Positions 1 to 26,232 of a DNA stretch of 31,025 bases are shown one piece after another. Origin of the DNA: a virus (lineage: Duplodnaviria > Heunggongvirae > Uroviricota > Caudoviricetes); the IMG/VR virus record IMGVR_UViG_2802429232_000001, positions 1 to 31,025 of that record; one strand, 5' to 3'. The notes beneath the pieces were generated by a model. It saw only the letters and a program-made list of their open reading frames with translations, made no database searches and had not been told where the DNA came from. Position numbers and translations under genes: made by a program. Position 1 is the first letter of the stretch. Every line of letters begins with the position of its first letter.

Positions 1-791
1 GCATTCGTTTCGCTGGTCTTCGCTGCCGTCTGGCTGGACTTTGCGTTAGTTTCGCTCGTCTTCGCGGCTTTCTGGCTGTTAGCCGCAGCAGTTGCTGATC
101 CAGCTGCTGAAGTCGCAGAACCAGCTGCAGCACTCTCGCTTTCGGCTGCTGCATCCTGGCTGTTTTTTGCTGCGGTAGCGGAGTTGGCGGCAGCACTCTG
201 ACTCGATTTTGCAGCTACCTCGCTATTTTTCGCATTAGTTTCGCTGGTCTTTGAAGCTGTCTCACTCGCTTTTGAGTTAGTTTCTGATTTTTTGGCCGCT
301 GTTGCGCTCGCTGCCGCCTCTTTAGCTTTTTGTGCAGCGGTGTTAATTATGGGAGTATTTTCTTTATACCATTCTAGGTTCTCATTGTGCTCATTAACGA
401 TCTGCGTAAGGGATTTTACGGTTAATTCCGTGCCATCTTCACGCTCAATTGTTATTTCATCCACAGCAGTCAGCCAACTACGCATCATTTTTGAATCGGC
501 TGACATGCGAGACATAAGCGCAGTAAAACGAGCACTAAATTGGGTCAAATCACCTTCATAGGTCGTAATTATTCTGCACGGAACATTTGTTTGGGTGCTG
601 CCACCGTAGGCTTCAACAAGAGTTAACGAAGTGTCACTCTCGATTGATTTTATTTCATATAACTTATTATCGGGGCCAATCAATATCATACCTGGAAGGA
701 CGCCGTTCGCCGTCACTCCCCAGGCTGTGCCTGTTCCCACTACAGTTTTATTTCCTTTAGTGAGATTTATTGTACCTTCCCTGTACCACAT
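1..791 (-). CDS. Side tail fibre protein, N-terminal ~263 codons (gene continues beyond window start)
   Basis: Not in ORF track because no stop falls in the window. Minus-strand frame is open from ATG at ~791 to position 1, with a GGAGCAAAGGA Shine-Dalgarno just upstream. Translation begins MWYREGTINLTKGNKTVVGTGTAWGV and runs into Ala/Ser/Thr-rich shaft repeats (SETNAKNSEVAAKSSQSAA, AAKTSETNAKSSQTAAKTSETN) typical of lambdoid Stf / T4 gp37-type fibres. Position immediately after J fits. Confidence 0.6.
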   Translation of the reverse strand, partial: MWYREGTINLTKGNKTVVGTGTAWGVTANGVLPGMILIGPDNKLYEIKSIESDTSLTLVEAYGGSTQTNVPCRIITTYEGDLTQFSARFTALMSRMSADSKMMRSWLTAVDEITIEREDGTELTVKSLTQIVNEHNENLEWYKENTPIINTAAQKAKEAAASATAAKKSETNSKASETASKTSETNAKNSEVAAKSSQSAAANSATAAKNSQDAAAESESAAAGSATSAAGSATAAANSQKAAKTSETNAKSSQTAAKTSETN

Positions 792-884
792 TTATCCTTT
801 GCTCCTAGATATGGTGGGCGTTCCATGCCCACCATTAAGTTAGTACCTACCTATTTTTACAGAAATGATTATTTTTTTCCACAA

Positions 885-3800
885 TCAAAGCTGACCAATC
901 CTAACTCGAAGGACATTATTGTCATCATAAACGTCAATCCTCTGACCATTTATAACCAATCTCCCATTGCCGCCACTATTGCTGTTGATCTCAAGCGTTC
1001 CATTTTTACCAAATCGCCATCCGGCTCGTCCGCTTACGAAGTTTGTTGATTGCAAGTCACCTACCTTTGCATTTGTGATAGTACCATCCTTAATATACGC
1101 ACCATTCATGTATGCAACGCTGTTTTCGATAACAAATGGTGTGGTGATCTTTCCGTTAACTGAGTTGACTAGACCAAATCGATCTGCTTGCACCAAAAAC
1201 TGGGAAAGCCCCGTGGTGTCAATTCCAAGCGCAATACCTGCGACATATTTTTGCCCACCACTTGTTGACGTTTCCATCTTCAACGTCCACGCGGTTGAAA
1301 CCTTTTTGTTAGTATCAGCAATAGCAGTTGCCTGCTCTTGAATTGTCGCTGTATTTCCATCAACTGATGCTTTTAAGGTGTCAATTCGTCCACTTAGAGC
1401 ATTGTCGGCGTTTGTGCGCACAGTCGCCTCAGACGTAATCGCGGCATTAATATCTTTGCTCGTTTGCGCCTGTAGATTAGTGATACTAGAAGCCAAAGCC
1501 GAATCAGCGTCAGTTCTGGCTTTCGTCTCTTCTGCTACAGCCGCCTTAATATCTTTACCCGTCTGGCTCTTCAATGTGGTTATCTGTTGTGCTAAAGATT
1601 CATCAGCAGTTGCTCGGGCAATTTTTTCTTCAGATATAGCTGCACTAATATCGCCTTCAATTTTGGCTTGTAACGATAGTATTTCTTTTGAAAGTGCTTC
1701 ATCGGCACTAGCTCGTGCCTCTTGTTCACTCACAATTGCGGCAGAAATATCATCGTTAATCTTTGATTCAAGTTTGGTGATTCTGCTTGCAATAGCATTA
1801 TCAGCATCTACACGAGCCGTTGTTTCTTCAGTGATTGAAGCTCTGATATCCTCATTTATTTCAGCGCGAATTTCTTCCATTTTCGTAGCCATTGCAGATA
1901 TATCGTCTGCAAAAGCCTTCTGAGTTGTGGTGATCTTCGCATTACTCACCATCTGCTTGTGCTGATCTTCATCCTGACGCAAAGCAAGATCGATGTTTGT
2001 TTTAGCCAATGCCTCAATGTTTGTCGTAACTTCGGCACTAGAACGTTCAACTTCAGCCACGGTTTTTTTCATTTCTTCAATGGTGGCTAAACTGCTATCT
2101 ACAGTTGACTTCATCGCCTCGATTTCTTTCGCGTTTGCCAAGTCACCCTCAACTCGTGCTTCACGCTCCTCCGCAATTAAAGCCGATGAATTGTCAAGTG
2201 CTGCATTTGCCGCCTCAACAGCTCCAGCTACAGCTTTACCCTGCTCTGATACAGTTTCCTGCAACTGAATTAAGGCAGCGTTAGAGTTTGCAACCTCCTT
2301 AAGTGCGTCTTCCACCTTGCTTACAGTACTGGAAACATCCGTTTTAAGATCGTTTTGAGCTTCTTCAAGCCGCCGATCTGTCTCTGTAAACTTGTCATCA
2401 AGGCTTTTCAGACTTTCATCCATCTGTTCATAGATGGAATCCACCGCCTCCTGAGATACTTTTGAGTCGATTTCCTCAAGTAAAGCCTGGCCAAGTTCAG
2501 AAGACGTAATTTTGCCTGTCAGGAACGACAGTACATCGCGAGTTGTCGCCTCTGTCCCCAAGTTTGAGTTCGGAGGACTTAACATACCTCGCTTGTTCGA
2601 TGCTCGAACCCAGTAATACCACGTTTCGCTATCCCCAAGACCAGCATGTGTAAAGGTGGTGCTTGCAGACTCTGCGATCAGTTTCGCTGTATCCAGATTG
2701 TTGGTCTGGGATGCGTAAACATTAATGTGATCAAGGTCTACCGAATCTGGATTAACCCAATTCAGTATCACATTACGATAGTCCCCAACGGCCGTTAATG
2801 ACGTTGGGGCATCCGGCGGTGTCATTGTGCCCAGCACCTGATAAACGGTACTGATAATCTCTGTTTTTTTACCGTTGAATGAAACCGCATACAGCTGGAA
2901 GTCGTAGCGTCCATTCTCCGCAACATTAACGATTTCGTATTGCTCTTCGGTTACACGCGCCGATTGCCAGTTCGATACATTGTTTTCATCAGAACGTCGC
3001 CAACTGATCCAATACTCTGGAGATTTCCCTTCCCATGTTGCAGTCAGTTTTACTGACAGGTTGCCAGGGCTTGAGAGATAAGTCCCTTCGGTGATTTGCA
3101 AATTAGACGGCTTGGAGTAAGTCGGGTCCAATACCGTCGTATTTTGCGGGATAAGCGTTGCACCATTGTCGATCGCCTCATATTTAGACGGATTGTTCTC
3201 AACAGCGGTGATGTCAAAGCTACCCGGCGTTTCCCCCTGCGCGATGTTAACGATGCGAACGCGCATAGGTTCGAGGTCTGGTTCTGTAATAGTCCAGACG
3301 CCGTTCAAAACAGGCGTCTCAGCCGAAGACAGGGCTTTTGAAAACGTAACTTTTGTTATATTTTCGCCAGTTTCAAGAACATCGCGTTCAACGATTTTGC
3401 CTTCCTGATTCAGTATTCGAATAAAGCAGCCGCCTTTGGCTAACGACACAGGCGCATCGAGTGTGACGCTGTTTTTGGTAAACGCCACAATTCGACCTGA
3501 GTTACGTTTGCCTGCGCGATATTTGTTCTGAATCAGAACGGTTTCACCAGGCATCAGAAATGACGCGTCTAAGCCGGCAGTAAATGTAATTACATCCGAC
3601 TCCATTCTGGCGGTATATAAAAGCCATAAACCAACTCGGTGAGCCTGCCCTCGGCTTGTACAGCCAAATGCTACGACTTCTGTCTTACGCTCACCATAAC
3701 GGCGCATTGCGTCCTGATCTTCAACGTACTCGATGTTTTGCTTATAACCGTCCTCCTTGTTGTTGTAGGTTACGAGCGCAACGGATGGGCGATCTTTACG

Positions 3801-5045
3801 CGCAGAACCTTTATAGGTAAACAATCCATCTTTGACGTTAGAGTTGGTAAACATCATTACCGGATCTGATGGGCTATCCTGCATGATGTTAACCATCCCA
3901 CCAGCCCAAAACACCATGCCGCGGAATGCTCCAGCAATATCCTGAATTAGCCGGTATGCGTCCTGTCGACTGGTGATCTGCGTATTGATTGCAAAGCGTT
4001 TCTCTTTGCCACCAAAGCCATCATCGACCTCTTCGTCACAATATCGACCAATCTGGTACAACTGGCCAAGGTCAATCATAGATTCCGACACATACTGACC
4101 AAGGCCATATCGAGCATTGGTCAGCAAATCAAAGAGAATCCACGCGGGGTTCGAAGAAGACAACAGCTTAAAAGTGCCATCCCATACCCCAGCGTAAGTG
4201 TTACTGGACTCGTTATAGTTTGAAGGTACTCGAATTTTTAGGCCACGCACCAGATAAGAGCGAGATGGCATGGTGCTGCCGAATTGCTCAGAGTTTACCT
4301 TCAATCCAACCAAAACAGAGTTTGGATAGTTCATCGGTGTATCGACAATTTCCCCGATTGAATCCACCCATGTATCGTTATAGAGATACTGGCTACTGTT
4401 ATCATCGGTAATACGGACTACACGAACCTTGTATGCGCGTCCAGGCTTAGGCAGCTTCAGCTCGTAGCTACGGTAATAAACGCCGGTCTTCTTTGCTGTT
4501 AGCTTAATGCCAACGCTTTTTTCACCTTCCGCGACCACATCTACAAATGTTGAGTCGCCATTTGCTATCTGGAACTTGTACTCAACAGTCGTACCGTTCG
4601 TGTCACCAGTTTTTTTATCTATGCTTCGCAAAGAAGGAAACTTCATGATGACACGAACCCGATCAGCTTCATCGTTATCGATTGAAACCGTTACATAATG
4701 TGTTTTTTTTAACTGGATATTGACGGATTTAGGCGTTTCAACGAAATCAAAGCCAGACATTGGAGTCTGGTCTTGTGAACCGTCGCGAAAATCCCATGTG
4801 ATTCCGCTGAAGTTGGAGGAACCGTCCTCATTTACAATCGGCAGATCGTCGATAAAAATAGATCTTGCGCCATTTACTAAGCCGCCAATTACCCCTTCCC
4901 CAAGAAGATCGAGGATAGCGGCCATTGCACGAGAATTTACGGTATCGTCGGCTTCAACCGGTGTACGGCTGGAGCTTTTGCTGCTTTTTTTACCACCCGC
5001 ACCGGCAATAAACAGCGGTAGCTTTTTCTTCTTGAACTGTTCCAT
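885..5045 (-). CDS. J: Central tail fibre / host specificity protein (lambda J-like) with FN3 domain and coiled-coil repeat insertion
   Basis: ORF track 885..5051 (1388 aa); start moved to ATG at 5045 (MEQF), the listed start being TTG. Conserved J blocks recalled from lambda: NYPNSVLVGLKVNSEQFGS, VPSNYN, GVWDGTFK, FGCTSRGQAHRVGLWLL, and C-terminal YVAGIALGIDTTGLSQFLVQADRFGLVN. Follows I/K/L/M as in lambda. Confidence 0.85.
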   Translation of the reverse strand: MEQFKKKKLPLFIAGAGGKKSSKSSSRTPVEADDTVNSRAMAAILDLLGEGVIGGLVNGARSIFIDDLPIVNEDGSSNFSGITWDFRDGSQDQTPMSGFDFVETPKSVNIQLKKTHYVTVSIDNDEADRVRVIMKFPSLRSIDKKTGDTNGTTVEYKFQIANGDSTFVDVVAEGEKSVGIKLTAKKTGVYYRSYELKLPKPGRAYKVRVVRITDDNSSQYLYNDTWVDSIGEIVDTPMNYPNSVLVGLKVNSEQFGSTMPSRSYLVRGLKIRVPSNYNESSNTYAGVWDGTFKLLSSSNPAWILFDLLTNARYGLGQYVSESMIDLGQLYQIGRYCDEEVDDGFGGKEKRFAINTQITSRQDAYRLIQDIAGAFRGMVFWAGGMVNIMQDSPSDPVMMFTNSNVKDGLFTYKGSARKDRPSVALVTYNNKEDGYKQNIEYVEDQDAMRRYGERKTEVVAFGCTSRGQAHRVGLWLLYTARMESDVITFTAGLDASFLMPGETVLIQNKYRAGKRNSGRIVAFTKNSVTLDAPVSLAKGGCFIRILNQEGKIVERDVLETGENITKVTFSKALSSAETPVLNGVWTITEPDLEPMRVRIVNIAQGETPGSFDITAVENNPSKYEAIDNGATLIPQNTTVLDPTYSKPSNLQITEGTYLSSPGNLSVKLTATWEGKSPEYWISWRRSDENNVSNWQSARVTEEQYEIVNVAENGRYDFQLYAVSFNGKKTEIISTVYQVLGTMTPPDAPTSLTAVGDYRNVILNWVNPDSVDLDHINVYASQTNNLDTAKLIAESASTTFTHAGLGDSETWYYWVRASNKRGMLSPPNSNLGTEATTRDVLSFLTGKITSSELGQALLEEIDSKVSQEAVDSIYEQMDESLKSLDDKFTETDRRLEEAQNDLKTDVSSTVSKVEDALKEVANSNAALIQLQETVSEQGKAVAGAVEAANAALDNSSALIAEEREARVEGDLANAKEIEAMKSTVDSSLATIEEMKKTVAEVERSSAEVTTNIEALAKTNIDLALRQDEDQHKQMVSNAKITTTQKAFADDISAMATKMEEIRAEINEDIRASITEETTARVDADNAIASRITKLESKINDDISAAIVSEQEARASADEALSKEILSLQAKIEGDISAAISEEKIARATADESLAQQITTLKSQTGKDIKAAVAEETKARTDADSALASSITNLQAQTSKDINAAITSEATVRTNADNALSGRIDTLKASVDGNTATIQEQATAIADTNKKVSTAWTLKMETSTSGGQKYVAGIALGIDTTGLSQFLVQADRFGLVNSVNGKITTPFVIENSVAYMNGAYIKDGTITNAKVGDLQSTNFVSGRAGWRFGKNGTLEINSNSGGNGRLVINGQRIDVYDDNNVLRVRIGQL
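1359..1853 (-). repeat. Five tandem, diverged 99-bp (33-aa) coding repeats inside J, within a longer coiled-coil segment (~1359-2500)
   Basis: Protein-level periodicity: EDIRASITEETTARVDADNAIASRITKLESKIN / DDISAAIVSEQEARASADEALSKEILSLQAKIE / GDISAAISEEKIARATADESLAQQITTLKSQTG / KDIKAAVAEETKARTDADSALASSITNLQAQTS / KDINAAITSEATVRTNADNALSGRIDTLKASVD. Coordinates derived from residue counts. Confidence 0.7.
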
Positions 5046-5062
5046 GTTCAAAAAATCCTTGT

Positions 5063-5656
5063 TTACATTAGCTGGTCAATCGTGATTGAAGAACTCACAA
5101 CCTGTGAGCCAACCAGAATTTCCTCGCCATAGATAAGTTGTACTGGGTTGCCCTGGTTTTCTGTATTTTGAGGGCCGTCGAAATAATAAGAGTTCGAGTT
5201 ATCTGCCTGTCTCACACTTTCGTTAGTGGCTTGCGGCGATATGATTTGTGATATGCCGCCCATCATCAGTGACAAACCGAGAGGTGCTAAAGCAGGCATC
5301 ACTACCGCCGATACAACCAACAAAGCGGCCCCTACTACCGTCTGAAACCACCCAAAAGCAGATCCACCGCTTCCTCGCGGAACAGGTGTAATGCGGATTT
5401 TGGCAATGTTGTCAGACTGCCCCATCATCTGATATTCACTTTCGTCAACAGACCACTTGTGGCCCTGTTTATTGGTGATCTGGATGTGGTAACTGTCATA
5501 GGTTTTGATATTGCGCTTCATCCATGCTTTAAACCCAGGCTTGTTGGCTTCAATTAAATCCAGAGCCTGTTTTGTATTGCGCACCTTTAGATGCCAGTGG
5601 CGACCAAAATGTTTAGCCATAGGTCCGCCAAGCTGCACATGAACTAACTCAGACAC
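5063..5656 (-). CDS. I: Tail assembly protein (lambda I-like)
   Basis: ORF track (197 aa). Sits between K and J and overlaps K's end as in lambda. Gly/Ala-rich hydrophobic central segment and C-terminal LIYGEEILVGSQVVS resemble lambda I (VLYGEMRVGSRVVS). Confidence 0.7.
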   Translation of the reverse strand: MSELVHVQLGGPMAKHFGRHWHLKVRNTKQALDLIEANKPGFKAWMKRNIKTYDSYHIQITNKQGHKWSVDESEYQMMGQSDNIAKIRITPVPRGSGGSAFGWFQTVVGAALLVVSAVVMPALAPLGLSLMMGGISQIISPQATNESVRQADNSNSYYFDGPQNTENQGNPVQLIYGEEILVGSQVVSSSITIDQLM

Positions 5657-6441
5657 GTCTCATCTCCCTTGAGCAAGTCTCTGTGACGCAAGTGATGCGT
5701 CGTATGTTTCTGATACATTCCGCCGTAATAAGCACGACAACTAAGACGGTCGATCTGGTGATGAAGAATCATTCCATCGCCGATATAAACCGCGCAGTGA
5801 TCTGGCATTTTCCCGTATTGAATAAAGAAGACGTCCCCACGTTGAGGCTCTGTTCCAGGCGCAAGCCGTACCAACCCTTCGTTTCGGTAGTTCTGGTCGA
5901 GAATGTCGTTATCGCCGGTGTACCACGATGGAATATGCAGGTGTGCGTTCGGGTTAAGCTCGACGTTAAACTCACGCTTCAAATAGTCCCGACACAACAT
6001 CCAGCAATCGAATACGCCAAATACATACGGTCTACCCAGGTATGGCATTTCGAAACCATCAGGTGTGATCACATTCATCTCGCTAAAATGGAAAGGGGCA
6101 TCTCCCTCAACATTCTTGCGAATAGCCAGAATCATCCACGGAACTTCCGTCGCTTCACAGCCTGCACGATCGGCATCAGATGCTTCTGCTGATTCATCAG
6201 TATGTGAATGCCAGATTGCGATTACGTCACCTGCATCCTCTGCCGCTATAATGTCGTCAACGTGCATTACAAAAGTGTTCTGCGGGTTCTCCGAAACATT
6301 TCGCGCTTCCATAAAGCGATATTTGTCGCCATTAGTTCTCACCAGAAAGCCACACGCTTCATTAGGGTAGCGATTTATGGCGCAGAGATAGATTTGCTGC
6401 ATAACATCAGAGCCAAGCTCAGGGATTGCTTTATTACCCAT
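5644..6441 (-). CDS. K: Tail tip assembly protein (lambda K-like) with MPN/JAMM and NlpC/P60 domains
   Basis: ORF track 5644..6468; start moved to second Met (MGNKAIPELG) at 6441, preceded by GGAG. Exact JAMM motif HxHx7Sx2D in IWHSHTDESAEASDAD; Cys (FDCWMLCRDY) and downstream His consistent with NlpC/P60. Confidence 0.8.
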   Translation of the reverse strand: MGNKAIPELGSDVMQQIYLCAINRYPNEACGFLVRTNGDKYRFMEARNVSENPQNTFVMHVDDIIAAEDAGDVIAIWHSHTDESAEASDADRAGCEATEVPWMILAIRKNVEGDAPFHFSEMNVITPDGFEMPYLGRPYVFGVFDCWMLCRDYLKREFNVELNPNAHLHIPSWYTGDNDILDQNYRNEGLVRLAPGTEPQRGDVFFIQYGKMPDHCAVYIGDGMILHHQIDRLSCRAYYGGMYQKHTTHHLRHRDLLKGDETCLS

Positions 6442-7132
6442 ATCGCGTAGCTCCAATAAACCCGCCAAAATGGATCACTCCGTTGGCAAAATAATTCCGA
6501 CGCGCATTACAGGCGTCATAACGTTTTGTGCAGTAATCAGCACCAGACATAGACGTCTGCTGGTTATTTTTGTCGAAATATGGACCGGTATAGCCGCATT
6601 CTGGCCCTCGGTATTTCCACGGGCAGGTGTTTTTAATGATCTGACGATACGGCAGTTGCACCCCCATCAAATCGAACACACTGGACAACTCAAACTCGAC
6701 AACCTGATGAGTTTCGAGCGTTTTCTGTTCGATAAACCACATTTCATCCGGGAAATGTTGGTTTGGATCTGCTGTTGGATTACCGTCTTTAAAATTAACG
6801 GCATCGAGGAAGCGAGCCAGCGTCATCTTGCGAATAATGCGGCAGCCAACAAGATCGTCGTTTGCCTGAACTTCCGCAGAGACGGTTCCGGCAAAGTTCG
6901 ATACCTGAATTTTTGGACGTGGCAACGTTCCCTGGCCCGTTTTGTCAAAGCCTGATGCTTTGATTGGCCACGGCTCGTATGTCACTCCTTGCCAGACGAC
7001 TGGTTGCATCAGTTCGTTTGTTCCGGCGTGGAAGAATAGCTTCCCCCCTGAAGTTGTGTTCGACATATCCAGTACGAACAACTCAATGAGTGCAGAGGGA
7101 GATAAGCTCTGAATATCAGCTTTAATTCCCAT
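6434..7132 (-). CDS. L: Tail tip protein (lambda L-like) with C-terminal Cys cluster
   Basis: ORF track 6434..7165; start moved to Met12 (MGIKADIQS) at 7132, preceded by AAGGATGAAACA. Blocks VWQGVTYEPWPIKASGF, ARFLDAVNF and the four-Cys C-terminus (CPW..ECGY..C..C) match lambda L as recalled. Confidence 0.85.
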   Translation of the reverse strand: MGIKADIQSLSPSALIELFVLDMSNTTSGGKLFFHAGTNELMQPVVWQGVTYEPWPIKASGFDKTGQGTLPRPKIQVSNFAGTVSAEVQANDDLVGCRIIRKMTLARFLDAVNFKDGNPTADPNQHFPDEMWFIEQKTLETHQVVEFELSSVFDLMGVQLPYRQIIKNTCPWKYRGPECGYTGPYFDKNNQQTSMSGADYCTKRYDACNARRNYFANGVIHFGGFIGATRYG

Positions 7133-7214
7133 TGTTTCATCCTTGAAATAAGTAGGCGCTAACATCCTGTCAGCGCCACAATGATAGTAAATCAGTACTT
7201 ACTTATCCAGATGC

Positions 7215-7550
7215 TTAAGCCTCAAATACTTGTCTGAATGTAGCAGTTAAGACACAGTACCCCTGATATCGCTTGACCGTATGACTGTCACATACAACTA
7301 CAATCTGCTTGCCTCTTGGATTAACCCAATAGAACGATTCAACGCCTGATCGCTCAGTCAGGAAGTCATCGATTGCATTAATTTCGTTGTATGATCTGGT
7401 AAAGGTTAACGACCATTCTTCTTTAATACGATTAAGACCTTGAGCCTGTCGCTGCTCGTAGTCATCACCAAAATTAAGTACCGTTACATTCGGTTTTACG
7501 CTTTTTTCAGATTCGTAATCTGGATACCAATTAAACGTTTGTCTTTCCAT
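7215..7550 (-). CDS. M: Minor tail protein (lambda M-like)
   Basis: ORF track (111 aa). Immediately downstream of tape measure; FGDDYEQRQAQGLN resembles lambda M FGDGYSQRAPAGLN. Confidence 0.8.
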   Translation of the reverse strand: MERQTFNWYPDYESEKSVKPNVTVLNFGDDYEQRQAQGLNRIKEEWSLTFTRSYNEINAIDDFLTERSGVESFYWVNPRGKQIVVVCDSHTVKRYQGYCVLTATFRQVFEA

Positions 7551-7565
7551 CTCACATCCTTGTGA

Positions 7566-7587
7566 GACTGCCCCCGTCGGGGCAGTC
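7566..7587 (-). other. GC-rich hairpin in the tape measure-M spacer
   Basis: GACTGCCCC-cgtc-GGGGCAGTC; no U-run follows, and the M RBS (AAGGA) lies just downstream. Confidence 0.4.
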
Positions 7588-7592
7588 GATAG

Positions 7593-10500
7593 TTAGTTAC
7601 GTTGAGTGTTTGGGTTGAGTGATCCGCCAGGGCGTTTTTCTTGAGCGATAGTCTCAAGTACGACGGCTTTCACCCGCTGAGCTGCATTATTCCATATGCT
7701 TTCTGTATCGCCGGATTCAGTTGTGCTACCGTCACTATGGACGTTGATCTCAATTGATACAGGAGAAAGAACATTTCCGCCTCCACTCATACCATCGGTA
7801 CTGAGCGTTACAGGGATTGTTCGGCCATCAGGCAATGGAACATACGCCTCATTCATAGAACCTTCCCCAAACAACGCTAATTGAGGTGAGTTAGCAATAC
7901 CGCCTTTCTGGTATGCCCGGAGCGGGATCACGCCGTCTTTTCCGAATATTCCTCCATTTGCAAACTTCGGGATTGCAGGAATGCCTTTAGTTCCGTCAGC
8001 CACACTGCTAGTTGCGGTTTTAGCAGAGCTTGATGTCACACTGTCGAAACCACCACCTGCCCATACTGAAACCAACCCAGATGCAACTGTCGCGCCGAAA
8101 TTCAACCACTTATTACCAGAGCCGGAAGCATTAGCTCCAAGCATTGCAAACGCGGCAGACAGAGCACCGGTAACAGAGCTGAGGTTCTGCATCGAGAAGA
8201 TGGAATCCTTCACTGCTTTTGTCTCAGCATCTTTGGCTTCGGTGCTATCAAATAGTCCTGATACCCAGCTACCAATCGCATTTGTTGCTGTGCCAATTGC
8301 GCTGGTGGTCTGCTGTGTCGTTTGCCCCAATCCAGTTACCGAACTGGACGTCTCCTTCGTGGCTTCTCCTACCGACTTGTCGCCGTTAACAGTGTTGCCC
8401 ATTCGTACCTCTTGATTGGCAACGGCGGAAGCAACCCCGGTCAGCAAATTACCACTCTGTGAACTACCAGCTGCGGTGGTTCCCATCCCCAACATGTTCA
8501 TTAGAGGCAGCGTGATCTGCGACTTCACGACCATATTGGTGATATCTTTCAAAATGGACTGAGATAGGCTGGAGAAGCTCATCTTCCCGTTAATAACGAA
8601 ATCAGTCAGGACATCAGTTAAGCCACTAAACAAATCAGTCCAGGTGCTTTCGATCTGCTCTGCCAGGTTTTCGTATTCCAGTGCTAACTTCTGCGTCGCA
8701 GTCCCTGTCTCTTTAATGAGCGCGGTATTGCCAGCAGCAATAAGTTGATTGATTTTCTTTGTATAAAGCGCCACGACTTTAGGATCAGACGCCTTATCAC
8801 GAAGTTCTATCAACGCTTTGAGATTGCGGTTGTAGGTGTCTTCGAAATCAGCAACTTTCTCTTCGCGAGACGGCGTATAGCCAGCACTAATAATGGAATC
8901 CGCCTCCGGTGCCCAAGTGGAGATCATCTGCTCAACATTGCGGCGATTAAACATCTCGCGATATTCAGGTGTCGCATTTTTGAGGTCTTCAAGACGTTTT
9001 TTCGCCTTGTCGATCATCTCTTGAGTGATGAACTCGTTAGGAACCGCATTAGCCAAATCTGTCAGCGATTTCGTTGTATCGCGAAGAGACTGATCAAACG
9101 ATACCGTAGCCTTAGAGCTTTCACCCATTTGCCCCATAAGCTGATCGGCTTTGTCCAGAGCCTTCTGGTATCCGGCTGCCAGTTTCTGTTGCGCTGCCTG
9201 TTCTTTCTTTGCTGCTCTCTCGGCTGCTTTTGCGGTACGGTTTGCTGCCTTATCCGCTGCTTCAGCATCAAGTTCACGAGCTTTTGTCAGAGTCTTAATT
9301 ACTGCGATGCGGTCATTTTCTGACAACTGCTCTAATTTCACATCACCGTAAATTTTCTTCTGTCTTAATTGCTCCTTGAGTTGTCGAGGCCCAACAACAG
9401 GTTGACCTTGTAAGTCGTATAATGCGGAACCATCTAGATTGACTCTTTGATACCTTTTAGAGTCCATCTGCTGTTTCCAAAAACCAGTCATAGTTTTGGA
9501 ATTAGCATCAACTGGTGTGCTTGAAAACTCACCAATTTTACCGCCATTAATTGACTTAAGACCGCTACCAGCTTTCACACTAAGGCTGGTCGTAACATTT
9601 TCGATCTGCTCTTCTATCGATTTCTTGTTAGCTATCTGAGCATCAATCCGAGCCTGAATTTCTTTGAGCTGTTCAGTATTATTTGCCGTTGTAGCCTTTT
9701 TAAAATCCTCATTTAAGTTAACAAGATCATTAAGAATACCCTTCTGAATATCCTGATAACCTTTGAGTTTTTGAAGATCCGCCTCAGAATATAAACGCTC
9801 GATTTTTGCGTTATTCGCGCCTCTTAATTGACTCTTCTCGTGATCAGATAGGTCAGTTCTGCCGGCAATCTCCTCATTCTTCTTGTTAAGCTGCTCCAAC
9901 TCCTTAGCATTTGCAACCAAAGAGACGTTTGCCTTCTGGTTTACTTCGGCAATTGCATCGTCTAAACCTTTGGTGACGCTTTTATAGACGCTCTTCTCAA
10001 TGCCTTCGCCAAGTGTTTTAGCTATGTCATCGCGTTCTTTCTTTAGGTTTTCAAGTTGTTGTTTGGTGCTGTTAACGTCAACATCTGTTTCATAAACCAG
10101 CCCATCTCTTGAAACCTGTGATCGTTTACCTGTTGTTACCTCCTTCTCTAGCTTGCTGATCTGACGATCTTTCTCTCGCTTTGCAGACTCCAGCATCGCG
10201 CGATCTGCCGCCGTCATTGCTTCAGGTATCTCTCTGACTTTATTTACGACATCCTCAATTTTTCCTCTGAGTACCTGCATGTAAAAAATCAGCGATGACA
10301 CTGCTGTTACTGCTGCGGTAAAAGCAAAACCTATCGGATTTGCGGCCATGAACGCAACCAATCCACTGAACGCATTACGAATAGCGAAGATTAAAGATGG
10401 TATAGGTGATAGCCCCATGCTCGCTGCCCGATTAAATCGTTTAACGGCTGTGGAAGCGAGATTAAATGTCCCTTGTATAGTGGTAGACATATTCGCAAAA

Positions 10501-12122
10501 GCAGACGTCATCTGACTGGCAGTTCCTATAACTCCAGAAATACCAGCCTTAAGTAGCTTAAAGGCCACCATAGCAGCTACTACCTTGCCGAAGGCAATGA
10601 CCAGTTCTTGATTTTTAATCAGCCACATTGCCAAATCACGCAAGCCATCCACAGCCGTTGTCAATCCACTTCCCAATGAGTGAGCAAAAGACATACCATC
10701 TGTGCTATTCATCAAAGAGGTAAGTTCTTTCATCCCCTCTTTTAAAGAGGACAAATAACCAGCTTGGCCAACTTTATCCGCAAATAGCGTAAAGGCCGTC
10801 TGCATCTGCGCCAACGTACCGGTAAAAGTGTTCATCATTTCGGACGCAGCCCCCTCGTTCTGCATCTTCAACTCTTTGAACATAAGTGCCAGTGCGTTTT
10901 TGGCTTCTACCGTTCCAGATGCTACAGCTTTAGTTAACTCGCCCATTGTCAGACCAGCAGCCTTGGCCATTGCGTTCATTGCTGTCGGAATCGCCTCACC
11001 TAATTGCTGGCGAAGCTCTTCCATCGATACAACACCCTTACCAGACATCTGCTGAACAGCAATGGATGCACGCTTCAGAAGTTCGCTATCCCCACCAAAA
11101 CGAGCAACGGAATCGACAAGAGTCTTTAAAGAGCCATCTGTTGGATCTAATCCTGCTGAGCGGAATTTAACGAACGAATCGGTTAGAGCTTCCATCGCAA
11201 ATGGGGCGCTCTTAGCCATATCCACGATGTACTTCATATCATCAGCGGCAGCCTGGCCAGGGTTGGACTTCTCCTTATTCAACCCTCGAAGCATCACCCG
11301 CATACGTTCCATTTCGGCCGCAGCTTCAACAATAGGCTTCTGCCACCCAAACATGATGTCAGTAACCGTTCTGGCTGCATCTCCGATCTCGCCAAGCAGG
11401 AAAATGTTGCCACGAAGGCCAGAGAACATACCTCCTTCGTTACTTTTACCGCTATGGCCAGAAGCGCCGCTACGCCGCCCGCTACCACCATCGCCACTTC
11501 CAGATGTACGAACGCGTACCGGCTTGCTAATCAGTTGCTGACGTCCGATAACTTCGTCCATCTGCTCACGAACCTTTTTCAGTCCCTCGGCAGCCTGACT
11601 CGTTGTGACACCCCAATTACTGAGTCGCTTCGTCGTGGTATTAAGGCGCGTATTCATGCCACTCACGGACGCAGAGGCTTCTTTGACCTCCGTACCAAAG
11701 CGGCTTGCGCTTTTGCTTGCATAGGTCGCCCAATCAGAGAAATCATTTAGCTCTGATTGCACTTTTCGTAATGACGCGGTGAGTTTATCTACTGAAGAAG
11801 TTGTCGTATCGACGCGCTCAATTAGGGCTTTAAGACCAGAATTGAGGCTGGTGATGTTGCCACGCATTTTACGCGTAGCATCTGAAGCAAGCTCAAAACC
11901 GGCAGCTACATCCTGTAGTTTATCTGCCGTAGAATCGAGCTTGCTTTCCAGAACGCCAATGATACGGGCGACCGAACCCAAAGAGCGTTCAAAGGTTTGG
12001 ATTTTTTGAGCAGGCTTTGTTACCTGCTCACCAAATCGAGTAAGCAGTTTCCCCGCACGATCGATTGACGCTGTAAACTGTTTGTCTTCCAGCGACAGGA
12101 TAAACTCTACGTTTTGTGACAT
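7593..12122 (-). CDS. Tail tape measure protein (~1509 aa)
   Basis: ORF track 7593..12143 uses a TTG overlapping the T frame; start moved to ATG at 12122 (MSQNVEF). Coiled-coil N-terminal third, hydrophobic Gly/Ala-rich central segments, position between G-T and M. Confidence 0.85.
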   Translation of the reverse strand: MSQNVEFILSLEDKQFTASIDRAGKLLTRFGEQVTKPAQKIQTFERSLGSVARIIGVLESKLDSTADKLQDVAAGFELASDATRKMRGNITSLNSGLKALIERVDTTTSSVDKLTASLRKVQSELNDFSDWATYASKSASRFGTEVKEASASVSGMNTRLNTTTKRLSNWGVTTSQAAEGLKKVREQMDEVIGRQQLISKPVRVRTSGSGDGGSGRRSGASGHSGKSNEGGMFSGLRGNIFLLGEIGDAARTVTDIMFGWQKPIVEAAAEMERMRVMLRGLNKEKSNPGQAAADDMKYIVDMAKSAPFAMEALTDSFVKFRSAGLDPTDGSLKTLVDSVARFGGDSELLKRASIAVQQMSGKGVVSMEELRQQLGEAIPTAMNAMAKAAGLTMGELTKAVASGTVEAKNALALMFKELKMQNEGAASEMMNTFTGTLAQMQTAFTLFADKVGQAGYLSSLKEGMKELTSLMNSTDGMSFAHSLGSGLTTAVDGLRDLAMWLIKNQELVIAFGKVVAAMVAFKLLKAGISGVIGTASQMTSAFANMSTTIQGTFNLASTAVKRFNRAASMGLSPIPSLIFAIRNAFSGLVAFMAANPIGFAFTAAVTAVSSLIFYMQVLRGKIEDVVNKVREIPEAMTAADRAMLESAKREKDRQISKLEKEVTTGKRSQVSRDGLVYETDVDVNSTKQQLENLKKERDDIAKTLGEGIEKSVYKSVTKGLDDAIAEVNQKANVSLVANAKELEQLNKKNEEIAGRTDLSDHEKSQLRGANNAKIERLYSEADLQKLKGYQDIQKGILNDLVNLNEDFKKATTANNTEQLKEIQARIDAQIANKKSIEEQIENVTTSLSVKAGSGLKSINGGKIGEFSSTPVDANSKTMTGFWKQQMDSKRYQRVNLDGSALYDLQGQPVVGPRQLKEQLRQKKIYGDVKLEQLSENDRIAVIKTLTKARELDAEAADKAANRTAKAAERAAKKEQAAQQKLAAGYQKALDKADQLMGQMGESSKATVSFDQSLRDTTKSLTDLANAVPNEFITQEMIDKAKKRLEDLKNATPEYREMFNRRNVEQMISTWAPEADSIISAGYTPSREEKVADFEDTYNRNLKALIELRDKASDPKVVALYTKKINQLIAAGNTALIKETGTATQKLALEYENLAEQIESTWTDLFSGLTDVLTDFVINGKMSFSSLSQSILKDITNMVVKSQITLPLMNMLGMGTTAAGSSQSGNLLTGVASAVANQEVRMGNTVNGDKSVGEATKETSSSVTGLGQTTQQTTSAIGTATNAIGSWVSGLFDSTEAKDAETKAVKDSIFSMQNLSSVTGALSAAFAMLGANASGSGNKWLNFGATVASGLVSVWAGGGFDSVTSSSAKTATSSVADGTKGIPAIPKFANGGIFGKDGVIPLRAYQKGGIANSPQLALFGEGSMNEAYVPLPDGRTIPVTLSTDGMSGGGNVLSPVSIEINVHSDGSTTESGDTESIWNNAAQRVKAVVLETIAQEKRPGGSLNPNTQRN

Positions 12123-12129
12123 TCCCTTG

Positions 12130-12482
12130 TCATCCTCTGCCAAATATTTGCATCAGTTGCTCTTTGGCGTCAGGGTCTGCCTTATCCTGGCTTGGATCGT
12201 AGACTTTATCTGTTACGACTGGTCTTCCAATCCTGAGTTGCAAACCCTCCATGAACGCCTTCACAGCCTCGCCATCCGCCTGGGACGCACGAGCGACTTG
12301 TAAGTTGCGGACATCCTCTTCCGCACGCAGACGGTCTATATTGCGACTGAGCATCCAGAACATCGTGAGAGGGATGTTCAATAGCTCTAATGGCGACACG
12401 GCGTAGTGAGCAACTACACGACTGAAATAGAATCCGAGATCTATTGAAACGGTCCTTGTCCCGGATTCATCGCGGGAAATTA
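12130..12482 (-). CDS. T-like extension frame, probably expressed only as a G-T fusion via programmed -1 frameshift
   Basis: ORF track 12130..12399 has only a GTG start and no RBS. Its frame is -1 relative to G and is open for the whole stretch from just upstream of the G stop to 12130, ending 8 nt before the tape measure ATG. Confidence 0.5.
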
Positions 12483-12852: not shown

Positions 12853-13599
12853 TTAATCTGCGGAGTTAATCGTTACTGACTTAGTAGCCTTCTTAGAACC
12901 GCTATTGCTGGTGAAGGAGATGTTTGCAGTACCCTGCGCCACACCGCGCACAAGACCCGTTTGATCTACCGTGGCCTTTTCCTGGTCTTCGGATTCCCAA
13001 ACACCGGTTTTGTCTGCGGCATCAGCTGGAGTGATTTCGGCTGTCAGTTGCACAGTTTCTCCAGCTTTTACGGTTGGAGATTCCGGTGAGATCGACACAG
13101 TTTTTACCGGTTTAGGACCGCTCATTTTGCCCAGAACGCCTTCATCATCCGGGTATGCGCTGAACTGAACAGAGAACACACGAACATCATCAGACTGGTA
13201 GGTCATAGTGAAGTTGCCCGCGGTTGCCGCTTTCGGGATGGTCAACACATAGTCGGTGGTGTCCTGCGGAGTCAGAACCAGCTCCTTCGCCACATCAATC
13301 AGGTTAACGCCCTGTGCAGATGTGATCGTGACAGAGTTGTCATCTTCGCTCAGAGTAGAACCAGGCATCAGGTCAACCATGTTTTGGAGTACAGACTCAG
13401 CCAGAGGCGCGGTGATGGTAATGTTGCGCCCCTGAACTAATTCGGAAATTACGGTCTGCCCCAACTGATCGACGGTGACTTTCAGCGTTTCAGTGGCTAC
13501 TTCAACCTGAACACCACCTTTGGTGTAACCCAAATCCACACCACCAAACGACACCTTACAGGCACCAAGTTTGATGTTTTTTACATGGGTATTAGACAT
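12853..13599 (-). CDS. Major tail protein with C-terminal Ig-like (Big_2-type) domain (lambda V-like architecture)
   Basis: ORF track 12853..13635; start moved to Met13 (MSNTHVKNIKLG) at 13599, preceded by AAAGGAG. C-terminal ~80 aa (VSISPESPTVKAGETVQLTAEITPADAADKTGVWESEDQEKATVDQTGLV) has the Big_2 pattern. Position directly upstream of G/T/tape measure. Confidence 0.75.
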   Translation of the reverse strand: MSNTHVKNIKLGACKVSFGGVDLGYTKGGVQVEVATETLKVTVDQLGQTVISELVQGRNITITAPLAESVLQNMVDLMPGSTLSEDDNSVTITSAQGVNLIDVAKELVLTPQDTTDYVLTIPKAATAGNFTMTYQSDDVRVFSVQFSAYPDDEGVLGKMSGPKPVKTVSISPESPTVKAGETVQLTAEITPADAADKTGVWESEDQEKATVDQTGLVRGVAQGTANISFTSNSGSKKATKSVTINSAD

Positions 13600-13649
13600 T
13601 GATGGAAAACTCCTTTTTCCGTTAATTCTACGCATTCATTGCGCTAATG

Positions 13650-16258: not shown

Positions 16259-17179
16259 TTATTCCTGTGCGGCAGTGACCTCTACGGTCGCTGTCGCTTT
16301 GTGGCTACCATCTTGGGTAGTAACCTCGATTGTGGCAGTGCCAGCCGCAACACCAGTTACAACACCGGTTTCGCTGTCCACCGTTGCAAACTCGGTATTT
16401 TTGGATTCCCAAGTAACGGTTTTATTTGTGGCTCCTGCCGGCTCGACATTTGCGGTCAGCCGAACAGTTTTGTTTGCCTCAACGGTTGTGCTATTTGGGT
16501 CGATTTCGACGCCTGTAACAGCCACAACAGGCGCAGTTACTTCCACCGTTGCAGTTGCCTTTTTGCTACCATCTTGGGAAACGATCTCAATCGTCGCAGT
16601 GCCAACTTCTACACCAGTTACGTTCCCGCTCTGGTCTACCGTTGCCTTATCTTCATTTTTGGAAGACCAGGTAACAGCCTTATTCGTCGCATTTGACGGC
16701 TGAACATTCGCTTTCAGACTGACTGATTTCCCTTTCTCAACAGACGTTGATTCTGGCGTTACCGTTACGGATTGAACGGCTACCGGATTTACGGTGACTT
16801 CCACTGAAGCGGAAAGCTGGGTTTCCTGATCAGTTGCAGTAATTTTTGCTTTGCCTGGGGCTACGCCAGTTACTAATCCAGTGCCGTTAACGGTTGCAAT
16901 TTGATCATTGGCTGACTTCCAGGTGAATGAACTGGCACTCTTACCCATACTAATACCTGCACTAAGTTGAACAGTTTTCCCAACCAAAACTGATGGTGAA
17001 GCCGGAGTTATGTTTACGGATTGGGAGAAGGGAACCGCCTGCAAACAAGCAGATAGCTGACTTTGTTGCCGCTCGGTTAAAGGTTCATCGGAGATAGAAT
17101 TGGTAAATCCGGCACGGCACATATGCCCCGTAAAATCCGAAAATGCCTCTTCCGTAATCTTCATCTTTTGTTCTGGCAT
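16259..17179 (-). CDS. Ig-like (3x Big_2-type) capsid decoration / surface protein
   Basis: ORF track (306 aa). Three ~80-aa repeats of the pattern VTVTPESTSVEKGKSVSLKANVQPSNATNKAVTWSSKNEDKATVDQSGNVTGVEVGTATIEI. Lies immediately downstream of the putative major capsid gene. Confidence 0.6.
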   Translation of the reverse strand: MPEQKMKITEEAFSDFTGHMCRAGFTNSISDEPLTERQQSQLSACLQAVPFSQSVNITPASPSVLVGKTVQLSAGISMGKSASSFTWKSANDQIATVNGTGLVTGVAPGKAKITATDQETQLSASVEVTVNPVAVQSVTVTPESTSVEKGKSVSLKANVQPSNATNKAVTWSSKNEDKATVDQSGNVTGVEVGTATIEIVSQDGSKKATATVEVTAPVVAVTGVEIDPNSTTVEANKTVRLTANVEPAGATNKTVTWESKNTEFATVDSETGVVTGVAAGTATIEVTTQDGSHKATATVEVTAAQE

Positions 17180-23923: not shown

Positions 23924-24174
23924 CTGCGCTCGATATTGGCATTGATGAAATCCAGGCGAAGAGACTCCATCGCCCCTACCATGACATACGGGCGCCCGCC
24001 GTTATGCCAGCAATCAAGAACACTGCCGTCGTTGTTGATCATCAACAGCGCCAGGCTCTGGCTTTTTCCTTCTCTGGCGTGCTGAAGTGCTTCTTCCAGC
24101 AGGCGGATGACTTCCACGTTGTTGTTATCAGTCTCTTTCGATGGCTTCAGCTCTACGATCTTCAAATCAGGCAT
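23920..24174 (-). CDS. Hypothetical small protein (84 aa)
   Basis: ORF track; overlaps upstream gene end by 8 nt; part of the tightly coupled module. Confidence 0.4.
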   Translation of the reverse strand: MPDLKIVELKPSKETDNNNVEVIRLLEEALQHAREGKSQSLALLMINNDGSVLDCWHNGGRPYVMVGAMESLRLDFINANIERR

Positions 24175-24805
24175 ATTCCACCTTCACGCGTTCTTTGTAG
24201 TGCTTGGTGATCTGCATATCCGGGCGCAGCGCGTTCTTCAGGTCTTCGTGAGTCGTCGCCACCATTACCGTCGCACCAACCTTTCGAGCGGCACGCTGGA
24301 GGTTAGACGCCACAACCTGAGCGGTTACACGGTCTAGAACAGCGCCGAACTCGTCAGCAGCCCATACTTTAGCGCCTGACTCAATCAGTTTGGCAATCTT
24401 GAGACGATATTTCTGGCCGTCTGACATTTCAGAAGGCTTGCGAACAAACAGATATGCATCGTTCAGACCAGCCATAGATAACAACCCAAGCGCATCACTG
24501 GTCGTTTTGCCCAACTGATCGATGACGTTAACCTCATTATCGAAGGTAAAATCATCGATGGAGGCCACAGATAGCCCTTCATCCTTCATCTGGTGTTGCA
24601 GCTCGCGCAGCACAACGGATTTGCCGGAACCGGATTGGCCGGTAATGTACACCACATCGCCCTGCTTCACTTCCAGCTCCAGATTGTCGTAAAGCGTCCA
24701 CTCTTTTTCGTCCAGGCCAAGCCCGAACGACTCAGCGATTTCCAACGTGCGCGTGGTTTTATTTACGCGTGTCTGAAACGATACGTTGATGATGTATTTG
24801 CTCAT
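24167..24805 (-). CDS. Minimal ABC-type ATPase (nucleotide-binding domain only)
   Basis: ORF track (212 aa). Walker A GQSGSGKS, ABC signature-like MSDGQKYRL, Walker B KVWAADEFG, H-loop VATTHE. No membrane partner nearby. Start overlaps upstream stop (ATGA). Confidence 0.7.
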   Translation of the reverse strand: MSKYIINVSFQTRVNKTTRTLEIAESFGLGLDEKEWTLYDNLELEVKQGDVVYITGQSGSGKSVVLRELQHQMKDEGLSVASIDDFTFDNEVNVIDQLGKTTSDALGLLSMAGLNDAYLFVRKPSEMSDGQKYRLKIAKLIESGAKVWAADEFGAVLDRVTAQVVASNLQRAARKVGATVMVATTHEDLKNALRPDMQITKHYKERVKVEYA

Positions 24806-25470
24806 GCAGCCATCTCCCCGGAAGAGATCTTCTCCGCATATGCCACAAATGCGTCTACCCCGCTTTCTCCCGTCATTTCTTCCATGTGGGCAAGCAAATC
24901 ACCAACAACAATGGCAGAGCCAGCAGGGAGCGTTTTAAAGCCCAATACGTCGACAACACGTACTTCTTCCGCTGCAACTTCACGACTGATCTCGGTGTGT
25001 TCATCCTTCTGTCGTTTAGTTTCTTCGCCAAGATCGATAACTAGCGAGTCGGTGTCCATTTCTTCTGTCATACTGCCAACGAGAACATTCAACTCACGCT
25101 CTTCAAAGCCGAAAACCTCGATATCGTCCAGAACAAGCGACTCAAGCTCTTTCTGTAGCTTAATTGCATCGTAATCAATGCTGGCAAGTCGGTTATCTTC
25201 AAGGCGCTTCGCACGAACCTCGTCATCACTGAGATCATCGCGAACAATAACCGGTACGCGCTCAAGTCCAGCAAAAATTGCAGCCTCACGGCGGCCGTGG
25301 CCAGTAATAATTACGTCGTTCTTATCGACCGTAATTGGCTGGTCAAATCCGCGCTTTTTAATGGCTGCGGCTAGATCTCGGATCTGCTGTTCATCATGCT
25401 TTTTGGCATTCATCTCATAGGGAATAAGATCTGCCGGGTCGCGATATACGATTTCAAACTTTTTGGTCAT
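24802..25470 (-). CDS. ParB/Srx-fold N-terminal domain protein (second copy)
   Basis: ORF track 24802..25503; start moved to Met12 (MTKKFEIVY) at 25470, AAGGAG upstream, overlapping the upstream stop (TAATG). ParB-box-like ITGHGRREAA; acidic C-terminal half. Confidence 0.6.
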   Translation of the reverse strand: MTKKFEIVYRDPADLIPYEMNAKKHDEQQIRDLAAAIKKRGFDQPITVDKNDVIITGHGRREAAIFAGLERVPVIVRDDLSDDEVRAKRLEDNRLASIDYDAIKLQKELESLVLDDIEVFGFEERELNVLVGSMTEEMDTDSLVIDLGEETKRQKDEHTEISREVAAEEVRVVDVLGFKTLPAGSAIVVGDLLAHMEEMTGESGVDAFVAYAEKISSGEMAA

Positions 25471-26150
25471 TACATACGCTCCTTGTAGTAGTCGACCAGC
25501 CACACCAGAGCCTCACCAGCGTTCTCCATTTCATTACCGGTGTTAATAGCCTGCTCTTTGATGATGTTTTTTATGGTTTCTGCAACACGATCTGACGCAT
25601 CGAAAGTTACTTTGAAGCGCATGGTCTGATGTTCCGCACCCACACGTTCGGTTTTCTCTCGTTTGTCGGTATCGACAGGCTCATCACTACCACGAGACAA
25701 AGCCTCCAGTGCTTCAAGGTCGATTGCCGCCTCTTTTGCTAAAACCATCGAGATTTCGTCGTCATACGGGGCGATTTCAGACAGTTGATAGTCAAGTTCT
25801 GACTGAATTTCTTCAATGAAGCGTTGCAATGCGATTTGGTCGTCTTCACCGTATCGCTCGTTGTCCACCAGTGACATCTGTTTAGCTACGACATCGCTAA
25901 TTTTGCCCACAGAAAGCACCGGAACCGTTGAAATTCCTTGCTCAATAGCAGCACGCCAGCGATGTTCGCCGCCGAGGATTTCAAAAAATCCATCTTCAAG
26001 TTCACGAGCCAAAATTGGCTTAAAAAAGCCCAATTTTTCGATAGAACCTTTCAGTTTTTCAAAATTCTGCGCACCAACCGAATTGGTGTTCCAGGTATTC
26101 GGGCGAAGGTTGGCAACATCAACCTGCAAAATCGTGATTTTTACATCCAT
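25470..26150 (-). CDS. ParB/Srx-fold N-terminal domain protein (first copy)
   Basis: ORF track 25470..26168; Met1 (26168) or Met7 (26150) are both possible. ParB motif FEILGGEHRWRAA; acidic C-terminal half. Confidence 0.6.
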   Translation of the reverse strand: MDVKITILQVDVANLRPNTWNTNSVGAQNFEKLKGSIEKLGFFKPILARELEDGFFEILGGEHRWRAAIEQGISTVPVLSVGKISDVVAKQMSLVDNERYGEDDQIALQRFIEEIQSELDYQLSEIAPYDDEISMVLAKEAAIDLEALEALSRGSDEPVDTDKREKTERVGAEHQTMRFKVTFDASDRVAETIKNIIKEQAINTGNEMENAGEALVWLVDYYKERM

Positions 26151-26168
26151 TTTATTGCTACAATCCAT

Positions 26169-26232
26169 TAAGTAATCACTTACTTATTATAATAGCCAAA
26201 TAACATACAAAAGGCACTAAGGAAAGAGGTTT
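26169..26232. promoter_or_regulatory. Divergent intergenic region with inverted repeat TAAGTAA-tcac-TTACTTA and TATAAT-like element
   Basis: Only 64 bp separate the divergent gene starts. Inverted repeat at ~26169-26186; TATAAT at ~26188-26193, readable on both strands; no convincing -35. Strong SD AAGGAAAGAGG precedes the helicase ATG. Confidence 0.4.

Follow-up and report, generated by a model that had tools for sequence, protein, structure and literature searches.

A 33-residue repeat array in the J-like central fibre of an SSU5-like phage-plasmid, a possible fold-switch shaft of variable length

The closest described counterparts of the gene discussed here are the central fibres of the F-type pyocins of Pseudomonas aeruginosa and of phage lambda. 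The central fibre shaft of F7 pyocin was found to convert from a trimeric coiled coil into a β-prism, opening the tail tip and ejecting the tape measure protein. Its strands follow the motif SxSxxMxxLxS in alternating orientation, and mutation of certain residues of the fibre kills activity while assembly is unaffected (He et al., bioRxiv 10.64898/2026.01.28.702463). The authors of the preprint predict the switch for 21 of 24 siphophage fibres. In F2 pyocin the long trimeric helical shaft of the central fibre bears the side fibres, as three side-fibre trimers (PMC13455828; bioRxiv 10.64898/2026.02.24.707460). Lambda J has a short α-helical shaft between its FN3 domains and its prism, which rearranges on binding to LamB (PMC11101478). 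Here we describe a J-like central fibre and tail-tip hub gene at 885-5045 on the minus strand of a 31,025-nucleotide stretch of a Caudoviricetes virus (IMG/VR record IMGVR_UViG_2802429232_000001), referred to below, at its full length, as the window. The window comes from an SSU5-like phage-plasmid of E. coli. The shaft of its J protein ends in an array of five 33-residue repeats, and by homology with the pyocin mechanism this array is slightly more likely than not to work as an F7-type fold switch, turning a coiled coil into a β-prism, rather than as a mere spacer (probability about 0.55).

The only long open reading frame (ORF) of the region in the ORF list spans 885-5051 on the minus strand. 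Its first ATG lies at 5045 and its stop codon TGA at 885-887, giving a product of 1386 amino acids (aa). The hub and FN3 domains (aa 1-838; 2532-5045) contain the Pfam families FNIII-A_GpJ (aa 102-236, E = 1e-29), Phage-tail_3 (aa 358-521, E = 1e-35) and fn3 (aa 745-824, E = 1.5e-5), align with lambda J 3-836, and are the conserved portion that closes the tail tip. At the other end lies the tail-tip fibre domain PF09327 (Phage_Tail_Tip; aa 1234-1368, 942-1346, E = 9e-42), beyond which the protein continues for only 18 aa. What the earlier note on this DNA had called the conserved C-terminal ~157 aa corresponds to aa 1230-1386. The PHROG label of the protein is 'central tail fiber J', and phmmer aligned it with lambda J (8iyk) at E = 2e-125. 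Foldseek matched the tip region to the lambda gpJ central fibre (8xcj/8xci) and to the SU10 tip fibre (7z4b), while a PDB sequence search linked the region to the F-type pyocin central fibre (25vf), lambda gpJ and several other tip fibres. From its hub and FN3 domains, the distal PF09327 domain and its operon position the protein is a central fibre of the TipJ / lambda gpJ type, and it belongs with those J-type central fibres that have an F-pyocin-like shaft.

Between the FN3 core and the C-terminal part, where the earlier note had placed a coiled-coil segment of several hundred residues, a helical segment of 388 aa (~aa 839-1226) was found. It is composed of a proximal stalk of 223 aa (aa 839-1061; 1863-2531, minus strand) and the array, aa 1062-1226. 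The array consists of five ungapped, in-register units of 33 aa, units 1 to 5 being encoded at 1764-1862, 1665-1763, 1566-1664, 1467-1565 and 1368-1466 on the minus strand. The true limits are thus 1368-1862; the same array had been noticed before at ~1359-1853, read 3 aa out of register. The repeats themselves are real: self-identity across the stalk reached z = 8.3 at lag 33 and 7.4 at lag 66 against shuffles, and a profile built from the five units scored each of them at 55-59 bits. The units share a mean pairwise identity of 48% in amino acids and 52% in nucleotides, with DNA identities from 42 to 59%, and the longest in-register exact match between any two of them is 11 nt. Tandem Repeats Finder, run on 1-8000 of the window, did not report the array because the DNA copies have diverged too far; the repeats are visible at the protein level only. 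An isolated weak copy of the unit core, SALIAEEREARVEGDLANAKEIEAMKS, is present in the proximal stalk at aa 954-980 (2106-2186; 10 bits). It lies 81 residues before the array, and every SSU5-like allele examined has kept it.

The array has a hydrophobic period of 3.66 (= 33/9, hendecad-like) and the proximal stalk one of 3.54 (heptad-like), both above the 99th percentile of shuffles. Related arrays built from units of 32, 33, 36 and 39 aa showed periods of 3.56, 3.67, 3.60 and 3.54, corresponding to 9, 9, 10 and 11 whole turns; such peaks are forced in part to harmonics of the repeat length, and what carries information is that in every case the harmonic closest to the α-helix (~3.6) dominates. 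Each unit is predicted to make nine turns in the helical state (33/9 = 3.67). Glu13, Arg17 and Asp21 are invariant in every unit and stand on predicted core positions. Structure modelling, a check suggested in the earlier note, was performed with AlphaFold2 on monomers and shallow alignments, once for aa 1029-1386 (49 sequences) and once for aa 1128-1300 (55 sequences). It returned a helix for aa 1030-1218, with a predicted local distance difference test score (pLDDT) of ~80 in the long construct and of 96-98 for units 3-5 in the short one. We infer that aa 839-1029 are helical as well, from the hydrophobic period of 3.54, and that the shaft is trimeric, from homology to solved trimeric shafts. 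Directly after the helix β-strands were modelled at aa 1220-1228, 1231-1243 and 1249-1260, with similar strands in the second model. The first of these already lies within the last half of unit 5. Following the interpretation of He et al., this junction (aa 1220-1260; 1266-1388, minus strand) is a candidate for the non-switching 'seed' of a β-prism.

The pyocin strand motif is found throughout the array. Each of the five units has SxSxxMxxLxS twice, first in reverse (unit positions 8-18) and then forward (23-33), and within a unit the two motif segments are separated by a 4-residue stretch rich in Asp, Asn and Ser and a 7-residue stretch rich in Gly and Asp. The array holds 13 matches against 2.7 +/- 1.5 in shuffled sequences, and none of 2000 shuffles reached 13. 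Motif density amounts to 7.9 per 100 aa in the array and to 0.4-1.25, the level of chance, in the upstream stalk, the hub, the tip, the tape measure protein and the side fibre. In the proximal stalk (aa 839-1061) the motif is not enriched, with 2 matches observed and 3.1 expected.

The correspondence extends to individual residues. HMMER aligned aa 1135-1358 with residues 970-1193 of the F2 pyocin fibre (25vf; E = 2e-27), and the residue at each of the twelve numbered positions is the one given for F7 and F2 by He et al. (bioRxiv 10.64898/2026.01.28.702463). Of the S-class residues, those mutated in that study (A987, A995, V1010 and A1017) correspond to unit positions 25, 33, 16 and 23. The M-class residues V1007, L1022, I1054 and E1039, the first three of which were used in the published modelling, fall on unit positions 13, 28, 28 and 13, and R1043, the salt-bridge partner of E1039, coincides with the invariant R17. 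In units 3-5 of the window protein, each of the eight published motif residues, of which four were tested experimentally, meets a position of its own class, and the exposed control residues A998 and A1011 map onto non-motif positions. In a set of 42 distinct units taken from relatives, small residues occupy the six S positions in 100% of cases and both L positions hold L, I or V in 100%, while Glu13, Arg17 and Asp21 are invariant and the non-motif positions vary freely (entropy 2.2-2.6 bits). With the small S positions and this residue-for-residue match to the fold-switch determinants of the pyocin, the description of the repeats as a spacer, offered in the earlier note, is probably incomplete.

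If the homology extends to mechanism, the loaded shaft would be a metastable coiled coil. Engagement of the cell surface, probably by way of the side fibres encoded next door, would trigger refolding of the shaft onto the small β-prism at its C-terminal end. Each 33-aa module would become one β-hairpin in the fired state, because every module holds two SxSxxMxxLxS strands of opposite orientation, whose small residues would sit at the corners of the prism. By standard geometry, refolding would shorten the shaft about five-fold, from ~24 nm to ~5 nm for five units, and this shortening would draw the FN3 closure apart, leaving an open tip through which the tape measure protein and DNA could be released. 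SSU5 has been reported to bind the core of lipopolysaccharide through its tail fibre rather than through J (PMC12312913, citing Kim et al. 2014), which fits a J protein that has no receptor-binding domain, while not thereby identifying the trigger.

Several points weigh against a switch. Sheet conformation was sought in the two AlphaFold2 runs, both monomeric and based on shallow alignments, and only helix was returned, with no prism state. Experimentally the switch has been seen in one tailocin only, in a preprint, whose discussion describes lambda and T5 as lacking an extensive switch (He et al., bioRxiv 10.64898/2026.01.28.702463). Because the five units are copies of each other, they provide fewer independent observations of the motif than their count suggests, and the residue classes used in the motif scan were picked from frequencies printed in that same preprint. 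Small residues beside core positions could reflect tight packing of a trimeric helical bundle. The arrays of 10-11 units that occur in relatives are about twice as long as the 163-residue segment seen to switch, and the geometry of one hairpin per unit derives from published residue numbers rather than from a structure.

A serious rival is a passive spacer or ruler, i.e. a stable trimeric coiled coil that sets the distance between tail tip and tip domain, for instance to reach through O-antigen or capsule, and whose copy number tunes length with no refolding. The confident helix in both AlphaFold2 runs, unit lengths that in related arrays always equal whole numbers of helical turns, the whole-unit differences between relatives (3-11) and the fact that lambda and T5 function without an extensive switch are all in line with this explanation, which we regard as a possible but less than even one. 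It leaves unexplained why six positions per unit, reported by He et al. to be exposed in the coil, are small in every one of the 42 units while neighbouring exposed positions vary, why a charged Glu-Arg-Asp ladder is invariant on predicted core positions, and why the array corresponds exactly to residues whose mutation kills F7 pyocin activity with assembly unaffected.

It was also considered that the repeats mainly bind the N-terminal domains of side fibres, so that more units would carry more, or differently placed, fibres. This role is compatible with the other explanations. On F2 pyocin the three side-fibre trimers are indeed anchored, by their N-terminal OB-like domain, on the central fibre's helical shaft (PMC13455828; bioRxiv 10.64898/2026.02.24.707460), but they dock at a single kink near the proximal shaft and not at each repeat (PMC13455828). 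In the window the side fibre gene follows J immediately, and the N-terminal 105 aa of its product show weak similarity to the side fibre of F2 pyocin (25ve_A, E = 0.0078). This match is marginal, however, and a distal tail protein scores slightly better (E = 0.00096). Likewise, a helix break at G1131 in unit 3 of the first AlphaFold2 model was not found in the second, and the units are highly regular, with no kink residues conserved across them. Docking is an improbable main function of the repeats. The break at G1131 was evaluated as a docking kink for side fibres and dropped, since it is confined to the one model and the F2 kink (G955) aligns elsewhere. That the array arose by mis-assembly or by very recent amplification of a tandem repeat, and lacks any stable biological meaning, has next to no probability, since beyond the general risk of mis-assembly in tandem repeats nothing speaks for it, reads cannot collapse copies with the DNA divergence and short exact matches given above, units this diverged are old, and the same 1386-aa protein recurs in dozens of independent assemblies, including complete plasmids, with a 5-unit array also in phage SSU5.

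As the earlier note had anticipated, copy number varies between relatives. Whole-unit counts of 3, 4, 5, 6, 7, 9, 10 and 11 were observed. Four units were found in nr protein P0095 (1353 aa), five in the window, in SSU5 and in alleles with an extra C-terminal domain, six in E. coli alleles of 1425-1426 aa and in Citrobacter freundii, nine in PhiR41_1 and plasmid AH02, ten in Cyrano and CMS-2020a and eleven in pCUPF07B; three and seven units occur among 80 IMG/VR loci, in all of which the array span is a whole multiple of 33 aa. The first protein search had yielded nearly exclusively near-identical E. coli sequences, and this diversity came from a cluster-representative search, a profile search and the IMG/VR loci. 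The array is accordingly neither invariant in relatives nor an assembly artefact. More widely, 3492 cluster representatives match the distal region at E <= 1e-3, and in ~137 of the best 150 of these the unit is present 1-26 times, in J-like as well as in separate fibre proteins.

Gains and losses of one unit (99 nt) are exact and occur in genes that are otherwise 97-99.6% identical. PhiR41_1 and CMS-2020a (SCU-175) differ by 16 mismatches in 4.6 kb and one exact 99-nt indel, flanked by the 11-nt sequence GCTGCTATTAA. The 4-unit protein P0095 contains a hybrid unit 4/5, whose junction lies at the 11-nt sequence AAAGATATTAA common to units 4 and 5 of the window. Compared to the 10-unit array of Cyrano, pCUPF07B has an extra hybrid unit 5/4 (11 units) and AH02 the reciprocal hybrid 4/5 (9 units), the two products expected from unequal crossing-over. 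How the changes come about can be read from these cases: unequal recombination between neighbouring units at such 11-nt microhomologies gains or loses whole modules, which would alter the reach of the fibre and, if the switch is real, its stroke. A high-frequency switch (phase variation) was considered and rejected, the microhomologies being short (11 nt) and the alleles stable across many isolates. A search of the literature for copy-number variation of such repeats in J proteins gave nothing specific, and within the literature searched the 33-residue modular build and the natural series of 3-11 units have apparently not been described before. It may further be speculated, as a tentative and rather doubtful extension, that a fold-switch spring has the 33-residue unit as its structural quantum, with nine turns in the loaded and one hairpin rung in the fired state, and that the allelic series generated by crossing-over (3-11 units in the family, 1-26 across metagenomes) tunes reach and stroke, for example to the thickness of host O-antigen or capsule.

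The J gene is a mosaic. Its hub DNA is 99% identical to that of phage Cyrano down to about position 2469 of the window (~aa 860), where similarity breaks. Shaft and tip as a whole therefore act like a module that can be exchanged. Some SSU5-like alleles combine a 5- or 6-unit array with a C-terminal domain of ~140-160 aa, as in E. coli S56 plasmid B (1525 aa), and in the C. freundii allele (1543 aa) the added C-terminal part contains a lambda-like stretch. Mosaic or extra-domain alleles of this kind were seen at loci L004 and L008-L011. The J homologue of Klebsiella phage vB_KpnS_p4727 (L006) has a hub that is 73% identical and a different distal part (aa ~1050-1868), in which helical stretches are interrupted by globular domains and the array of 33-aa units is absent. 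A tblastn search against this homologue aligned query aa 1-1053 only and gave no match to the C-terminal tip of the window protein. This distal pattern is that of the Klebsiella clade of SSU5-like elements.

The J protein of the window is 88% identical to its counterpart in Salmonella phage SSU5, and the gene is 99.8% identical in DNA, over its length, to that of E. coli phage-plasmid NZ_CP117002.1. Among 5426 complete E. coli genomes, 231 matching places were found, all 231 on plasmids, and ~226 genomes carry a matching J gene. The whole J gene of the window was matched over at least 80% of its length in 45 of these genomes and the distal 1.6 kb of the 10-unit Cyrano J in 167, a comparison that is approximate because the queries differ in length. 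In plasmids NZ_CP115313.1, NZ_CP053233.1 and AP026520.1 the J matches are broken into pieces, with an insertion sequence (IS) element or transposase annotated beneath (e.g. IS1203), which suggests that some E. coli phage-plasmids have a disrupted central fibre gene. SSU5-like phage-plasmids are described as known carriers of resistance genes (PMC9600943).

Upstream of J, on the same minus strand, lies a tail-tip module (5063-12143) identified by Pfam on the neighbouring ORFs. It comprises an I-like protein (5063-5656, so assigned after the annotated syntenic genes of Cyrano and PhiR41_1), K (JAB + NlpC/P60; 5644-6468), L (6434-7165), M (7215-7550) and a tape measure protein of 1516 aa (7593-12143). 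The gene order is tape measure protein-M-L-K-I-J-side fibre, and the annotations of SSU5, Cyrano and PhiR41_1 show the same order. The side tail fibre gene begins 94 nt downstream of J with an ATG at 789-791 (minus strand) and continues past the window start (1-791). In its translation a globular domain at the N-terminus precedes a stretch rich in Ala, Ser and Thr that is made up of short 'SETNAK.S..AAK'-like repeats. Elsewhere on the minus strand, Big_2 Ig-like domains are present as one copy on a likely tail tube protein (12853-13635) and as three copies on a 306-aa protein beside the capsid gene (16259-17179), suggesting decorated tail and head surfaces. Two neighbouring ParB_N-domain ORFs and an ABC-type ATPase (24167-26168, minus strand) and a DEAD/ResIII helicase (26233-27792, plus strand) adjoin the virion module; the genes at 24167-27792 likely serve plasmid maintenance or replication. 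An ORF of 173 aa at 29951-30472 on the plus strand matches Pfam Flag1_repress (repressor of phase-1 flagellin, FljA-like) from end to end (E = 2e-68), which suggests that the phage-plasmid might change flagellin expression of its host.

SSU5-like phage-plasmids are common in E. coli, and length differences between their J genes are real whole-unit polymorphisms, not sequencing errors. If the central fibre works like that of F7 pyocin, these elements offer a culturable infectious phage (SSU5, Cyrano), a regular repeat that can be engineered and a natural series of 3-11 units that includes near-isogenic one-unit variants. Such material would allow testing of how non-contractile tails open without adenosine triphosphate (ATP), and from the unit series one could learn whether reach, stroke or host range is set by how long the switching segment is. 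The modular unit together with this series makes the idea of a fold switch directly testable in an infectious phage.

Comparison with lambda gpJ (PDB 8iyk, 8xcj, 8xci) shows an alignable hub, FN3 part and tip-fibre prism, and lambda has the same M-L-K-I-J gene order as the window. Lambda J, of 1132 aa, aligns in two blocks, window aa 19-860 with lambda 3-836 and aa 1230-1358 with lambda 840-971. The gap between the FN3-aligned and tip-aligned blocks measures 3 residues in lambda (836 to 840) and ~370 in the window J, and ~370 extra residues are therefore located exactly at the FN3/tip junction. The unit profile gave no match in lambda J even at E <= 100, in agreement with the earlier statement that lambda J lacks such an array. 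As an alignment against lambda, the term insertion used in the earlier note is correct, but the units are old and widespread, and since lambda has a short helical shaft at the same place the region is better called a greatly expanded shaft than a foreign insertion. The array is an expanded ancestral module and not a recent insert. The LamB-binding C-terminal domain of lambda (~972-1132) has no counterpart in the window J, which lacks a C-terminal Ig-like receptor-binding domain as in lambda; such a domain marks lambda-type alleles specifically and is not a defining trait of the family.

Several solved tip fibres (PDB 9l9p_S, 9ze4_N, 23gd_D and SU10 7z4b_EA) contain helical repeats of the form ...EALSREIDQLKAQIGDDIQA... 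followed by a PF09327-type tip ending in ...LRVxIGxL. They have fewer units than the window J, and some of them are separate fibre proteins without a hub. The fibres of He et al. 2026 have a high-propensity coiled coil directly upstream of a small prism, with alternating SxSxxMxxLxS motifs, and the same arrangement is predicted for the window J. The main text of that preprint makes no mention of SSU5-like phage-plasmids by name and nowhere uses the word 'repeat'; the modular 33-aa unit and its copy-number polymorphism are likewise not described there.

The F-type pyocin central fibre of P. aeruginosa (F7 CFP; F2 PyoF10/PA0641; PDB 25vf, 25vj, 26ci) shows the same order of hub, FN3 domains, long helical shaft and PF09327 tip as the window J, and both lack the lambda-type receptor-binding domain. 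At the residues tested in F7, the window J has kept the S, M and L positions of the motif as well as the Glu-Arg pair, and in both systems a side-fibre gene is adjacent, with weakly similar N-termini. Differences are found in the regularity and length of the shaft. The pyocin units are ~32 aa long, with single-residue gaps in the loops, whereas those of the window J are 33 aa long with a period of 3.67 throughout, and the F2 shaft was described as mainly heptad with a stutter (bioRxiv 10.64898/2026.02.24.707460), unlike the array of the window. The window shaft totals 388 aa, including its 223-aa proximal stalk, compared to ~265 aa (818-1083) in F7. Finally, the F pyocin is a tailocin, whereas the J protein of the window belongs to an infectious phage-plasmid that must pass DNA.

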